Positions 8,533 through 12,739 of a stretch of DNA of 17,565 nucleotides are shown here, piece by piece (within the stretch, counting starts at the first letter, position 1; every line of letters starts with the position of its first letter). This DNA is from Promethearchaeota archaeon (lineage in GTDB: Archaea; Asgardarchaeota; Lokiarchaeia; Sigyniarchaeales; SOKP01), in assembly GCA_048941265.1 (NCBI GenBank), contig JBHLNT010000077.1, positions 1 to 17,565 of the forward strand, written 5' to 3'. Both the position numbers and the translations under genes were made by a program. Below the pieces are notes generated by a model. It was not told where the DNA came from. It saw nothing but the letters and a program-made list of their open reading frames with translations, and did not search any database.

Positions 8533-8598
8533 TAAGACCATAAATTTTAAGTTAAAAGAAATATTTCTTTATTAATCATTATCAAAAATAAGATTTTT

Positions 8599-8602
8599 GG
8601 TG
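8599..8602 (+). promoter_or_regulatory. Shine-Dalgarno-like GGTG upstream of the proposed ATA start of rps12
   Basis: GGTG lies 7 nt before ATA(8610) and matches part of the archaeal SD consensus GGAGGTGA. Confidence 0.55.
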
Positions 8603-8609
8603 TATTAAA

Positions 8610-9044
8610 ATAGGAAAGCCAAAAGGATTATACGCTGCCAGACAACTGAAAAAAAATCGCAAGAAATTCAGGTGGAGTAAAACTAAATACAAAAGGAAAA
8701 AATTAAAATTAAAACAAAAGGCAGATCCACTTGAAGGTTCCCCGCAAGCACTGGGTATTGTTTTACAAAAAGTCGGAAGAGAAAGTAAACAGCCTAACTC
8801 TGCAATTCGAAAATGTGTAAGAGTTCAATTAAAAAAAAATGGTAAAGGTGTTACTGCTTTTTTACCTGGGGATGGTGCTCTCAATTTCATAGAAGAACAC
8901 GATCGTGTGATCGTTGAAGGGATTGGTGGCGCAAAGGGGCGTGCTGTTGGAGATCTTCCAGGAGTGAGATGGAAAGTAGTTAGTGTCAATGGTGTTAGCT
9001 TACAAGCCTTATTAACTGGAAAGAAAGAAAAGCCAATGAGGTAA
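8610..9044 (+). CDS. rps12: 30S ribosomal protein uS12, 144 aa, non-canonical ATA start
   Basis: Not in the ORF track. Manual translation gives (M)[22 protein letters not shown]...[36 protein letters not shown]...[17 protein letters not shown]...[29 protein letters not shown]. There is an in-frame TAA at 8589-8591 and no ATG/GTG/TTG between it and the conserved GKP. Confidence 0.95.
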
Positions 9045-9664: not shown

Positions 9665-9800
9665 ATTTTCTATATTTTGAGTCTAATTTTTAAATATATC
9701 ACTTCAATATCACCTATATATTATCTCAAATTGGTCTGTCATTTATAACTTCCTTAATTTTTATATTTTTGATGAACCTATTATTTTATAATTAGAGATA

Positions 9801-9831
9801 AGAGAATAAACTAAATCAGAGAATAATCTAA
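9801..9831 (+). repeat. Imperfect 14-bp tandem direct repeat at the start of the wHTH-ATP-cone gene
   Basis: AGAGAATAAACTAA (9801-9814) and AGAGAATAATCTAA (9818-9831) differ by 1 base. A TATA-like TTTTATAA lies at 9784-9791. Confidence 0.4.
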
Positions 9832-11822
9832 TGAGTTCCGACAAAAATATTAAAGATATAGGAAATTTTCTAAAAGTATTACAGCAACCTATTAGACGGG
9901 AAATCTTAAACAAATTGAATTCATGTGAGAATCCTATGTCATTTTCAATGCTTCAGAAAGAAGTTTTAGGCAAAATTTCCACTTCTGTGAATTTTTCTTT
10001 TTATATAAAGCCCTTAAAAAGTCTAGCTTTAATCTCATCTAAAGAAGATGGATATTTAATTACAAATTTAGGAAAAAAACTCTTAAAACTCATTTTAAAT
10101 ATGGAACAAGTTCTTATTCAAAATAAAAAACCAGTTATGATTAGAACTTCAAAGTATTCTAAAGAAAAATTTGATATTAATAAAATCGAGGAATACTTGA
10201 TTAAAGAGGGTGAATTAAATCCTAATTTGGCAAAAGGTATCGCCAACCAAGTTAAAAAACGTCTTAAAACTACGAAAATCGATTATCTTACAGCACCCTT
10301 AATGAGAGAATTTATAAATTCTATTCTTATAGAAAATAATTTGGAAGATGTAAGGCATAAATTGACCCGATTAGGCACACCTCCTTATGAAGTCTCAAAA
10401 TATTTTAAAAATTATGATATTTCCCCTTTAGATTTTATCGACATTTTAGGATCAGATGTTTCTGAACAATATCTACTCTTAAATTTATTACCGAAAACTT
10501 TTGCTGATATGTACTTGTCGGGAGAGATTATACTTCTTCATTTAAATCAATGGGCTTTAAGACCATTAAGTATTTACTTGCCCACTAATAATTTTTTAGA
10601 AAAACTTTATCAAAATAATTCTACTTTACCAAAAGAGTTTAAAAATATCAATGAGATAATACGATTAATCCTAAAATTTATAGATCTCTTAAATATCTTT
10701 CGTCCTTACTTTTCTGAAGATATTTTATTAAGTGAATTTAATTCAAAATTTTTAACTTATTTATACAGTCTTAAAAATGAACATATATCTGAGATATCTA
10801 AATTATTAATTTCTCAATTATTTGAATATAGTGAATATTTTAGAGACAATAAACCACATATAACATTAGATTTTAATTATGAAAATAATGGGGTAGCTAG
10901 CTGTGAAATCTCCTCCTTATTTCAAAATGATTGTTTGTTTTTAAAAACTCTCCATCAAGAAAAATTTCTAAATAGAAAATTTAAAAGTCCATTAATTCTA
11001 TTTGATTACTTCAATATTTTTAACTCAATATATAATGAAAATATTATTAATGAGTTATTTCTCCTTACTCGTTTAAAAAATATTATATTTTACAATCATA
11101 ATGCTTCTAATTTGTTAAATTCAGCAATAATAAGAGTTAAAAATCAGGATTGTAATGAAAATAATATAATTTTGGACAAAATATTAATAAATTTAAAACT
11201 TATAGCCCTTAAGGCAAATCAAAATGATGAGATGTTTTATAGTTTATTACAAGATAAATTAAATTTGGTCTTTGAATTTTTTGATTATAAAGGAACCTTG
11301 GTTGCTAAAAAATTAGATCATATGAATGATTGGAAATTTATAATTACAAAGGTTTTAGGAAAGAAATTAGGAGACTGGGTGATGGATTCCTTAAAATCAA
11401 TTAGCTTCATAGGATTAAATGAAGCAATTAAATATCATTGCGGTATAGAGCTTGATAGAATTGAGAATAGTCAAAAATTTGGTTTAAATATTTTATCTTT
11501 TCTTAGAGATTTAATTAATGAAAAAAATGAAACTGAAAATACAAATTATAACTTAAGTCAACCCTGTGATATTAAAGTTTTAAATGGTGTTAAAACCTTT
11601 CATATTCCCTGTAGCTTTAAGAATCATGATCCATTAAAATTAATTAAAACTAACTCTAACTTATCATTAGATAAAAAAATTTTGTTATTCAAGAAGTTTG
11701 AAAAAATACTTGATGGTGGAACTTTATTTAATTTTATCTTAGATTCAACTCAGAGTCTAAATAAAGAAGATTTGGATTTCTTGATTGAATCTAATCTGCA
11801 AGCTTTTACTATAAATCGTTAA
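9831..11822 (+). CDS. ArsR-like wHTH + ATP-cone + degenerate class III ribonucleotide reductase (NrdD)-like fusion, probably catalytically inactive
   Basis: aa ~10-90 form a wHTH (LKVLQQPIRREIL...MSFSMLQ...NFSFYIKPL...GYLITNLGKKL). aa ~101-185 form an ATP cone (VMIRTS...EKFDINKIEEYLIKE...A..IA..V...LTAPLMREFINSILIE). NrdD-like blocks follow: TRLGTPPYEV, LPKTFADMYLSGEI, INLKLIALKANQNDEMF, ISFIGLNEAIKYHCG, LDGG. The C-terminal CxxC..CxxC and R(V/I)xGY motifs are absent. Confidence 0.8.
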   Translation: MSSDKNIKDIGNFLKVLQQPIRREILNKLNSCENPMSFSMLQKEVLGKISTSVNFSFYIKPLKSLALISSKEDGYLITNLGKKLLKLILNMEQVLIQNKKPVMIRTSKYSKEKFDINKIEEYLIKEGELNPNLAKGIANQVKKRLKTTKIDYLTAPLMREFINSILIENNLEDVRHKLTRLGTPPYEVSKYFKNYDISPLDFIDILGSDVSEQYLLLNLLPKTFADMYLSGEIILLHLNQWALRPLSIYLPTNNFLEKLYQNNSTLPKEFKNINEIIRLILKFIDLLNIFRPYFSEDILLSEFNSKFLTYLYSLKNEHISEISKLLISQLFEYSEYFRDNKPHITLDFNYENNGVASCEISSLFQNDCLFLKTLHQEKFLNRKFKSPLILFDYFNIFNSIYNENIINELFLLTRLKNIIFYNHNASNLLNSAIIRVKNQDCNENNIILDKILINLKLIALKANQNDEMFYSLLQDKLNLVFEFFDYKGTLVAKKLDHMNDWKFIITKVLGKKLGDWVMDSLKSISFIGLNEAIKYHCGIELDRIENSQKFGLNILSFLRDLINEKNETENTNYNLSQPCDIKVLNGVKTFHIPCSFKNHDPLKLIKTNSNLSLDKKILLFKKFEKILDGGTLFNFILDSTQSLNKEDLDFLIESNLQAFTINR

Positions 11823-12739
11823 TCCTTTAATAATTCAGCTAAAAGTGCTTTTCTTAGTTGCAGACCATAATTTGTTTGTTTAAAATAAATAGCCTTTTCT
11901 GAATAATCTACATCAGGAGAAATTTCGGTAATTCGAGGTAAGGGATGCATTAATTTGAAATTACTTTTTGTTGCTTTTAAGTCATCCTTATTAAACACAT
12001 AAATTCCTTTAACTCGTTCATATTCTTCTTGATCAACAAATCTTTCTTTTTGGATTCTTGTGATATAAAGTACATCTAAAACGTCTAGTACTTTTCTATA
12101 TTTTGTTAGTTCTTTAAATTTTGCTCCTTTTTCATTAATCAAGAACTCTTTGTATCGATTCCTAATTGCTAATTCAGGGGGGCTGATAAAATAAAGGTTA
12201 ACCTCATAATTTGATAATAATATTGATAAAGAATGGACTGTCCTACCATACTTTAAATCTCCCATAATACCAATGTTTAATCCATCTAAAGATCCACATT
12301 CTTCAGAAATAGTAAGTAAATCGAGCAATCCTTGAGTTGGATGTTCTCCACTTCCCGAGCCAGCGTTAATTATTGGTATTTTAGCAAAATTTGCTGCTAG
12401 TTTGGCAGATCCTTCTAATGGATGTCTCATTACTATACAATCACAGTAGTTTTCTACAGTTCGTATCGTATCTGCAATACTTTCCCCTTTTTTAATTGAA
12501 GAAACATCTCCTGATTGAAAACCAATGACATTTCCACCTAATCTATACATGGCAGATTCAAAACTTAGACGAGTACGAGTTGATGGTTCAAAAAATAAAG
12601 TAGCAAGTATCTTTCCTCTAAGTAAGTTTGAGTTAGTATTTTTTATCATTTCTCTGCCTTTTTTCAAAATATATCCAATATCTTCTCTATTGAATTGCTT
12701 AGCACTTATAATTCCTTCTTCAAATTTCTCCTTAAACAT
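11819..12739 (-). CDS. pyrB: Aspartate carbamoyltransferase catalytic subunit
   Basis: FFEPSTRTRLSF, KKGES..DT, INAG.G..EHPTQ, GDLKYGRTVHS, TRIQKERF and MHPLPR. It shares the TTAA at 11819-11822 as overlapping stop codons with the convergent gene. Confidence 0.97.
   Translation of the reverse strand: MFKEKFEEGIISAKQFNREDIGYILKKGREMIKNTNSNLLRGKILATLFFEPSTRTRLSFESAMYRLGGNVIGFQSGDVSSIKKGESIADTIRTVENYCDCIVMRHPLEGSAKLAANFAKIPIINAGSGSGEHPTQGLLDLLTISEECGSLDGLNIGIMGDLKYGRTVHSLSILLSNYEVNLYFISPPELAIRNRYKEFLINEKGAKFKELTKYRKVLDVLDVLYITRIQKERFVDQEEYERVKGIYVFNKDDLKATKSNFKLMHPLPRITEISPDVDYSEKAIYFKQTNYGLQLRKALLAELLKD

Follow-up and report, generated by a model that had tools for sequence, protein, structure and literature searches.

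Gene, domains and their conservation

We analysed a stretch of 17,565 nucleotides (nt) from the genome of a Promethearchaeota archaeon (contig JBHLNT010000077.1; hereafter the window, with 29% G+C) and in it a gene whose product appears to join a winged helix-turn-helix (wHTH) and an ATP-cone to the barrel of NrdD, the class III ribonucleotide reductase (RNR). An original prediction, made from the letters of the window, had described an intact open reading frame (ORF) of 663 amino acids (aa) with a serine codon in place of the first active-site cysteine, the segment LLNSAIIRV in the finger loop and an end at LQAFTINR, all of which we could confirm at the following positions:

9831..11822, plus strand: whole gene, wHTH, ATP-cone and a predicted catalytically dead NrdD barrel; 663 aa, ATG start, intact ORF
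9831..10115, plus strand: predicted ArsR/SmtB-type wHTH, residues 1–95; from models, Foldseek and Pfam DUF7347 (E 1e-5)
10131..10364, plus strand: ATP-cone, residues 101–178; from Pfam ATP-cone (E 9e-5), conservation and likeness to the host NrdD
10365..10580, plus strand: linker and first barrel strand, residues 179–250, including Ser247 (10569–10571); from alignments
11112..11138, plus strand: finger-loop remnant LLNSAIIRV, residues 428–436, with Ile433/434 in place of the thiyl-radical cysteine pair; from hhalign
11796..11822, plus strand: C-terminus LQAFTINR followed by TAA, at the last barrel strand; the match in hhalign extends as far as residue 643 of the 705 in NrdD

An AlphaFold model of the whole protein, built with 50 relatives, reached a predicted local distance difference test score (pLDDT) of 82.3 and a predicted template-modelling score (pTM) of 0.72, and its nearest solved structures in Foldseek are the class III RNRs of S. 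thermophilus, P. copri, T. maritima and phage T4 (E 1e-16 to 1e-8). At the level of sequence profiles, Pfam NRDD is matched with 62.6 bits (cut-off 26.2) by residues 452–577 only, corresponding to profile positions 283–412 of 562, and DUF7347 (residues 14–87, 26.0 bits, cut-off 27.6) and ATP-cone (residues 103–174, 23.4 bits, cut-off 25.8) stay just under their cut-offs, with HTH_45 (19.8 bits, cut-off 25.5) under as well. Searches of the PDB with the wHTH and cone sub-domain sequences returned chance-level matches only, and the profile of the family had a single match there, S. thermophilus NrdD, at an E-value of 0.0036.

The topology of the N-terminus, α1-α2-α3-αR-β1-β2-α5, is the same in the model of the whole protein and in a separate model of residues 1–100 (pLDDT 88.6). 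Its Foldseek neighbours comprise NolR–DNA, CggR–DNA, ArsR, HlyU, BigR, CzrA and CadC with probabilities of 0.97–1.00 and template-modelling scores of 0.5–0.7, at E-values of only 6e-3 to 6e-2 for this short domain; the top structural matches include 8r3g, 7oyk, 4omy and 3f6o, and all neighbours are DNA binders, NolR and CggR having been solved on DNA. The recognition helix follows the consensus SxNFSFHLKxLK with N54, S56, H58 and L59 nearly invariant. Most relatives have a PF24038 annotation, and PF12840 is annotated for 4 among the 120 matches listed (P0077, P0086, P0103 and one other). The N-terminus, called ArsR-like in the original prediction, is thus predicted to fold as an ArsR-type wHTH, with DNA-bound regulators as its nearest solved neighbours.

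The cone region aligns column for column with the cones of real NrdDs and shows a β-β-α-α-α pattern in the predicted model. Together with the linker (residues 101–246) it is 31% identical to the real NrdD of the host, which makes this the most NrdD-like part of the protein. R105, T106, S107, E112, R144, R159 and R175 are invariant in the family, and the conserved basic or acidic positions of the cone, a putative ATP/dATP-binding site, are R105, E112, R144, R159, R175 and R180. Averaged over the parts of the protein, the frequency of the major residue amounts to 0.79 in the ATP-cone, 0.76 in the linker and first strand, 0.68 in the wHTH and 0.44 in the middle of the barrel, so that the ATP-cone and the adjoining linker are the most constrained parts.

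Loss of the catalytic elements and distribution of the family

Profile–profile alignment by hhalign of the family (A1, 50 sequences) with real NrdDs (A2, 19 sequences) gave a probability of 99.95 and placed family residues 104–664 on NrdD residues 29–643. Invariant in the 19 real NrdDs are Cys174, Cys382, Cys649/652/663/666, Arg676, Gly679 and Tyr680. Ser247, encoded by AGT in the first-strand segment LHLNQWALRPLS, which begins at residue 236 of the 663-aa protein, is aligned on Cys174, the active-site cysteine of the first strand (LRPFC in the host enzyme), and Ile433 and Ile434 are aligned on Cys381 and the invariant Cys382, the finger-loop thiyl-radical position. The end of the protein corresponds to NrdD residue 643, and it has no counterpart of the CxxC..CxxC motif (649, 652, 663, 666) or of R676/G679/Y680. 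Its own cysteines at 32, 358, 368, 441, 537, 579 and 594 form no cluster at the N-terminus; C537 is the sole invariant cysteine of the family, and the finger-loop region holds no conserved one. The NCBIfam NrdD equivalog TIGR02487 scores 59.6 against a cut-off of 326.35, and four other NrdD equivalogs are likewise far under. As judged from these alignments, the protein has lost both active-site cysteines together with the Zn ribbon and the glycyl-radical domain, in agreement with the three losses originally proposed. Part of the NrdD pocket persists: the invariant N454 aligns with Asn in the NLPR motif, and both GLNE and GG are kept.

No radical-SAM activase gene lies within the window, as had been noted for nrdG; the activase of this genome is found beside the real nrdD on another contig. 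This bona fide NrdD (P0122, 705 aa) matches NRDD with 480.6 bits over the whole profile and is immediately followed by the radical-SAM activase gene (nrdG), so that the separate intact nrdD/nrdG pair envisaged beforehand exists in the same genome. In total the host encodes three NrdD-family proteins. The third, P0123 (606 aa, L002:1513-3330, minus strand, contig C273 of the host genome G000), is a second dead paralogue without a wHTH, 52% identical to the real NrdD, in which LRPLS carries Ser for Cys, a deletion of about 20 residues removes the finger-loop cysteine pair and no Zn/Gly domain is present. The same lineage commonly has relatives of this kind (about 600 aa, 53–87% identity), most of them annotated as active reductase.

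A wide alignment of 119 representatives of at least 560 aa together with P0122, P0123 and the window's own protein P0001 (122 sequences) contains 115 with a wHTH. In none of these 115 do the first cysteine, the finger-loop cysteine and the Gly-Tyr occur together, and all four sequences with the full catalytic set are without a wHTH. At least three Zn-ribbon cysteines are retained in 54 of the 115. The ratio of nonsynonymous to synonymous substitution rates (dN/dS), calculated against two orthologues, is 0.18 and 0.21. With intact orthologues and no complete catalytic set among the wHTH-bearing relatives, the gene encodes a conserved pseudo-enzyme under purifying selection and not a truncated or decaying nrdD, as had been suggested.

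A word-index search returned 479 relatives, of which the 120 closest, those listed, are 561–677 aa long and 46–100% identical, nearly all with DUF7347 and NRDD, and carry database names such as 'anaerobic ribonucleoside-triphosphate reductase', 'hypothetical protein' and 'ArsR/HxlR family regulator'. An exhaustive representative search gave 613 clusters at E-values up to 1e-3. Scanning genome contigs with the single protein found no relative; the alignment-based scan, with one genome per species, detected a relative in 120 species genomes, and the best 80 of these 120 were examined as orthologous loci, with labels of Promethearchaeota/Promethearchaeia or other Asgard candidate phyla, bar two odd labels. 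In a sample of the GTDB phylum of 301 genomes (300 and the window's own), the form of about 660 aa is present in 64 of 68 genomes of the window's family. A wHTH form of about 770 aa occurs in families f2 (7/7), f15 (3/3), f17 (3/4), f21 (5/6), f23 (2/3), f11 (1/1) and f3 (1/1), and no family member was found in f7 (0/28), f14 (0/19), f24 (0/21), f16 (0/11) and f29 (0/11) of the same sample; matches in f9 are real NrdDs with coverage of cone and linker only.

The long form (about 730–790 aa) is encoded in at least 576 species genomes, with hosts among Bathyarchaeia, Methanomethylicia, Jord-, Atabey-, Hel-, Odin- and Baldrarchaeota. Its four Zn-ribbon cysteines are invariant (A4), catalytic cysteines are absent and the C-terminal tail has no conserved Gly-Tyr. 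It is likely that an NrdD first gained the wHTH, then lost its radical residues, giving the long form, and that the lineage of the window later lost the Zn-ribbon tail. The same architecture, for which a survey of Asgard and TACK genomes had been proposed, is widespread in both, much wider than suggested, and the family is already present in databases, mostly mislabelled as active reductase.

Promoter repeats, an element in common with nrdD and the gene context

We compared the regions upstream of the gene in 79 orthologues. The following elements could be distinguished in the window:

9696..9726, plus strand: three head-to-tail repeats with 11-bp period, ATATCAC / ATATCAC / ATATTAT, about 30 nt upstream of the promoter core; candidate operator
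9750..9766, plus strand: core resembling a B recognition element (BRE) and TATA box, with the TATA run at 9758–9766; conserved by eye in the 79 upstream regions, putative promoter
9777..9789, plus strand: copy of an ATTATTT-type half-site just downstream of TATA, near the expected transcription start; by eye in the 79 upstream regions
9838..9846, plus strand: CCGACAAAA element, at nt +8..+16 in the ORF; under nucleotide-level constraint and also present in the leader of the real nrdD

The repeat element was located in 75 of the 79 upstream regions. A position weight matrix (PWM) of the repeats scores at least 14 in 78 instances at the gene's own promoter and in 4 elsewhere, within 952 kb of 78 loci, and two of these four lie in a duplicated promoter: in L061 (3150-3300) and in L068 the promoter region of the gene is tandemly duplicated together with a membrane acyltransferase-like gene, between the S7 gene and the target gene. 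Scanning the host genome with the same matrix gave scores of 28.5 and 20.5 at the own promoter; the site is nearly unique in this genome. Among the promoters of 79 Bathyarchaeial long-form loci we found no clear shared operator; a TATA run of the TTTTAAAC/T type lies within 250 nt upstream in 38 of them.

The second element lies inside the coding sequence. CCGACAA is found in 76 of 79 orthologous loci; codon 3 is NCC, with Ser, Ala, Thr and Pro as the encoded residues, GAC stands at codon 4 in all 79, although GAT outnumbers GAC by 180 to 22 in the genes of the window, and AAA stands at codon 5 in 78. In five loci (L020, L027, L033, L041 and L059) the motif stands in the 5' untranslated region (UTR), followed by a stop codon. 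This codon pattern and the copies in the 5' UTR indicate that CCGACAAAA is a nucleotide-level element. The start codon itself varies, with GTG in 34, TTG in 26 and ATG in only 14 of the 79 loci. CCGACAA(AA) follows the TATA run by 68–71 nt in 52 target loci. Of 24 nrdD loci from the same family, 21 carry CCGACAAA in the leader of the real nrdD; its distance downstream of the TATA run is 63 nt at 15 loci and 71 nt at 3. It also precedes three degenerate nrdD copies. The CCGACAAAA 9-mer occurs 34 times in the host genome, with three copies between −200 and +30 of an ORF start, at the target gene, at nrdD and at one small ORF; by eye, none was seen upstream of the P0123 gene in this genome. The third copy (G000, C312:13981), located 120 nt before a 107-aa ORF without an assigned family and beside two replication factor C (RFC) small-subunit-like genes, may be due to chance. 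In a family without the target gene CGACAAA was found upstream of nrdD in 0 of 25 loci, which is a weak control, as nrdD lies inside an operon there and the G+C content is higher. Rfam has no match in the window, and four nrdD loci gave only a sub-threshold match to the S15 leader (E 0.47, 21.1 against 39.5 bits), probably a chance match. As far as sequence comparison goes, the common element and its position relative to the promoter indicate that the target gene and nrdD are co-regulated.

Upstream of the gene the window holds rpoA1, rpoA2 and the genes of L30e, NusA, S12 and S7. Downstream follows a convergent gene:

11819..12739, minus strand: pyrB, aspartate carbamoyltransferase (ATCase) catalytic chain, overlapping the target gene by 4 nt; Pfam OTCace_N and OTCace

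Beyond pyrB lie the genes of L44e, a PNP_UDP_1 phosphorylase, TFS, a 107-aa protein and PCNA. Among the neighbours named in the original prediction, pyrB, the phosphorylase and PCNA were found again, while the 107-aa ORF, formerly called RPA, has no Pfam match. pyrB occurs in 78 of the 80 orthologous loci and S7 in 74; the counts for other neighbours are limited by contig ends. In some loci membrane-protein genes on the opposite strand separate S7 from the target gene, which consequently must have its own promoter.

At 26 of 80 long-form loci a pyrB gene is located no more than 5 kb away. Sixteen long-form loci were annotated with Pfam. In five of them, all from Bathyarchaeia (L088, L095, L105, L107 and L123), a full-length NrdD follows on the same strand, with a glutaredoxin in between in three of the five. 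A convergent pyrB and a divergent pyrI come next in L088, L095 and L105 (and in others of this type, judged by ORF position), and pyrB was not seen in the annotated stretch of L107 and L123. The long form directly adjoins pyrB in L087, L099, L144 and L158, with pyrI next in L087, L144 and L158. Gene order thus connects the family with RNR and with pyrimidine genes in two superphyla of archaea. We also considered the protein as a replacement of the ATCase regulatory chain PyrI, since pyrB abuts the gene without pyrI, and rejected this because pyrI is found elsewhere in the genome and next to pyrB in long-form loci.

Two further observations were made at long-form loci. In the Bathyarchaeota locus L107 (3539-4837, plus strand) a 433-aa protein with N-terminal HTH_20/HTH_5/DUF7347 is encoded directly upstream of the long-form gene. 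In L085, L086, L087, L091 and L116 (Jord-, Atabey- and Methanomethylicia-type) genes of the mevalonate pathway precede the long form on the same strand, comprising HMG-CoA synthase-like, thiolase, a DUF35-type OB/Zn-ribbon protein and, in some loci, HMG-CoA reductase.

Regulatory interpretation and alternatives

We propose that the protein is a non-catalytic class III RNR paralogue that turned into a nucleotide-sensing transcription regulator, a functional analogue of NrdR with putative nucleotide and DNA binding, and we give this reading a probability of roughly 0.5. In such a model the protein would dimerise via the RNR-type interface. By analogy with P. copri NrdD, in which the nucleotides shift a dimer–tetramer equilibrium (PMC11226230), ATP or dATP would bind in the cone, and deoxynucleoside triphosphates (dNTPs) might additionally bind at the former specificity site. 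The oligomeric state would depend on the bound nucleotide and would set whether two wHTH domains can bind DNA, either at the repeats or at CCGACAAAA. Via its own promoter and that of nrdD, the protein would finally control dNTP supply. Of the nucleotide or replication role that had been assigned to the gene, the link to dNTP supply is strengthened by the Bathyarchaeial glutaredoxin–nrdD synteny and by the leader motif in common with nrdD, while a regulon beyond the own promoter did not emerge.

The comparison with NrdR is close in principle and distant in build. NrdR senses ATP/dATP via changes of its oligomeric state and represses nrd operons, often including its own gene (PMC9110341, PMC12176259), and it is present in most bacteria and only some archaea (PMC9110341). 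In both proteins an ATP-cone is joined to a DNA-binding domain, and the target gene has a cis-element in common with nrdD as well as conserved repeats in its own promoter. In contrast to NrdR, the DNA-binding part is a predicted ArsR-type wHTH and not a Zn ribbon, an RNR barrel of about 480 residues follows the cone, and the candidate sites are direct repeats and CCGACAAAA instead of paired NrdR boxes. NrdR has about 150 residues compared to the 663 of the target, which is no homologue outside the cone and not a member of that family.

More tentatively, and in our view somewhat less probable than the above, the protein could be a master regulator of dNTP supply in Asgard and TACK archaea, built from an entire dead RNR, which would read ATP, dATP and dNTPs through the kept allosteric sites and occupy the direct repeats and CCGACAAAA; archaea would in that case have arrived at the NrdR principle independently. 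The cone would have retained its activity site and the dimer interface its specificity site, and the substrate pocket might have been retained as well. In a bolder variant of this proposal, CCGACAAAA would be read on the mRNA.

Several results weigh against the proposed transcription regulator. In the host-genome scan the repeat element stands at no nucleotide-metabolism gene, and nrdD promoters carry no repeat match scoring at least 8. Five matches of at least 18 were found in the host genome outside the own promoter, compared to about two in shuffled sequence, and they adjoin a transposase-like ORF, an integrase-like ORF and small ORFs. CCGACAAAA is estimated to lie 40–50 nt downstream of the expected transcription start, which we regard as unusual for an archaeal operator. 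The element might be recognised on RNA, or a different factor might recognise it and simply regulate the two genes together. The Pfam scores of both the wHTH and the ATP-cone remain under the gathering cut-offs; the cone of the host's real NrdD is likewise under (21.8 bits). The target cone has Arg-Thr where canonical cones have Lys-Arg, and the real NrdD of the host carries the same Arg-Thr. For P. copri NrdD, the residues at this site are Lys7/Arg8 (PMC11226230). Finally, in G019 and G159, metagenome-assembled genomes (MAGs) of 98–99% completeness, the target-family protein is the only NRDD-family match. Its role there is consequently not limited to nrdD, unless nrdD was missed by binning, which is a real possibility, since in G030, from the same genus, a short contig carries an nrdD. 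A search for class I/II RNR barrels (PF02867) found none in G000, G019, G159, G144 or G138, and the lack of a detected intact RNR in G019 and G159 could reflect a binning gap or dependence on external deoxynucleosides.

Other roles are conceivable for the protein. The dead barrel might pair with the real NrdD or with P0123 via the RNR dimer interface and tune reductase activity as a non-catalytic regulatory subunit, with the wHTH serving for tethering or being secondary. The similarity of cone, linker and first strand to the host NrdD (31%, residues 101–246), which are among the most conserved parts, the three NrdD-family proteins in one genome and the location next to nrdD in Bathyarchaeia speak for such pairing, yet it leaves the wHTH of 115 of 115 relatives lacking the catalytic set, and the promoter repeats, without explanation; the occurrence of the protein in G019 and G159, where we found no other NRDD-family gene, also counts against it, weakly, as assembly gaps are to be expected in MAGs. 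We consider a subunit of this kind unlikely. Slightly less probable still is a post-transcriptional regulator, which would read CCGACAAAA in the leaders of its own mRNA and that of nrdD and control translation or stability in a nucleotide-dependent manner. The position of the motif, downstream of the expected transcription start in both genes and 7 nt after the target start codon, and its retention in the five loci where it stands in the 5' UTR speak for binding to RNA. Against it, the distance to TATA (63–71 nt) is steadier than that to the nrdD start codon, which fits a role at the DNA level, all structural neighbours of the wHTH are DNA binders, and Rfam gave no family match, with no search for conserved RNA structure having been made.

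With the same low probability we regard another nucleotide-binding role, as a dNTP sensor in replication or chromatin or as a non-radical enzyme, in which the wHTH would provide protein contacts or non-specific tethering to DNA. The conserved active-site residues of NrdD (N454 on the Asn of NLPR, GLNE and GG) would fit, as would the fixed synteny with genes of RNA polymerase, S12/S7, pyrB, TFS and PCNA; conservation is, however, lowest in the middle of the barrel (0.44), we saw no other catalytic motif, and the synteny block is conserved as a whole and carries little functional information. A truncated or decaying nrdD copy without own function would readily explain the missing catalytic residues and C-terminal domain, and independent degenerate nrdD copies do arise in the lineage. 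This explanation is refuted by the conservation data and retains next to no probability, given a dN/dS of about 0.2, a length of about 660 aa and an architecture that are shared by the 120 closest relatives listed and by 64 of 68 family genomes, the gain of a wHTH and the conservation of the promoter elements.

Returning to the nucleotide-sensing regulator, its likeness to known proteins is partial in each case. With class III NrdD (P0122 and the structures from P. copri, 8p23/8p28, S. thermophilus, 9dca, T. maritima, 4con, and phage T4, 1h79) it has ATP-cone, linker and barrel fold in common, and in contrast to them it has a wHTH and is without the cysteines at both active-site positions, the Zn ribbon, the glycyl-radical domain and an adjacent activase. 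Its long-form relatives combine wHTH, cone and dead barrel as well, often with a convergent pyrB downstream, but they keep the Zn-ribbon cysteines and C-terminal tail and in Bathyarchaeia stand upstream of nrdD. P0123 resembles it in the Ser for Cys exchange, the lost finger-loop cysteine pair and the missing Zn/Gly domain, and differs by having no wHTH and by being much closer to the real NrdD. CggR/SorC and ArsR/SmtB repressors have an N-terminal wHTH of the same predicted fold, with a ligand-binding domain of enzymatic origin in cases such as CggR/SorC. Inactive homologues of the RNR large subunit from herpesviruses (M45) reportedly keep the RNR scaffold for a non-catalytic role. Unlike the target, these belong to class I and to animal viruses, act in cell-death signalling and have no DNA-binding domain.

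In the literature we found no regulator with an RNR-derived effector domain, and the portions of text within reach of our search describe neither a wHTH–ATP-cone–NrdD-like protein nor a dead NrdD from archaea; a full-text search for 'DUF7347' returned 0 papers. Tn7-like elements have been reported to adjoin a gene called nrdD in a Promethearchaeota genome (10.1101/2025.07.27.667033), and the accessible part of this report does not let the real gene and a dead paralogue be distinguished. Both conserved cis-elements are newly described here, and the regulator type, going by models and analogy, would be a wHTH with an enzyme-derived sensor on the NrdR principle. To our knowledge, the regulation of dNTP synthesis in archaea is largely unknown. 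A large family that is deeply conserved in the archaeal lineages nearest to eukaryotes thus offers a testable candidate for a dNTP regulator together with candidate DNA sites. If this is true, it would be the first RNR-derived transcription factor found, an allosteric enzyme recycled as sensor. Since two of the three 'nrdD' genes of the host appear dead and relatives are labelled active, RNRs are expected to be overcounted in metabolic reconstructions of Asgard and Bathyarchaeia MAGs.

Further observations concern nrdD and the window itself. A degenerate nrdD of 624 aa (L192:1447-3321, plus strand, G144), with counterparts in G138 and G261, is of independent origin: it retains the first cysteine (LRPFC), with the finger loop deleted and no Zn/Gly domain. 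An intact nrdD was found neither in G144 nor in G138, which are 98–99% complete. The open frames holding the real nrdD extend over 1658 aa in L186 (G309) and 1687 aa in L187 (G168), a length suggestive of an insertion, for example an intein. The frame of ribosomal protein S12 in the window (8592-9044, plus strand, 150 codons between stops) lacks an ATG, GTG or TTG start near its beginning, so the gene must use another start codon or an unusual start. At the left edge of the window two tandem paralogues with CoA_binding_2 and Succ_CoA_lig, of the ADP-forming acyl-CoA synthetase type, lie on the minus strand at 3-869 and 891-2387, the first of which runs off the window.

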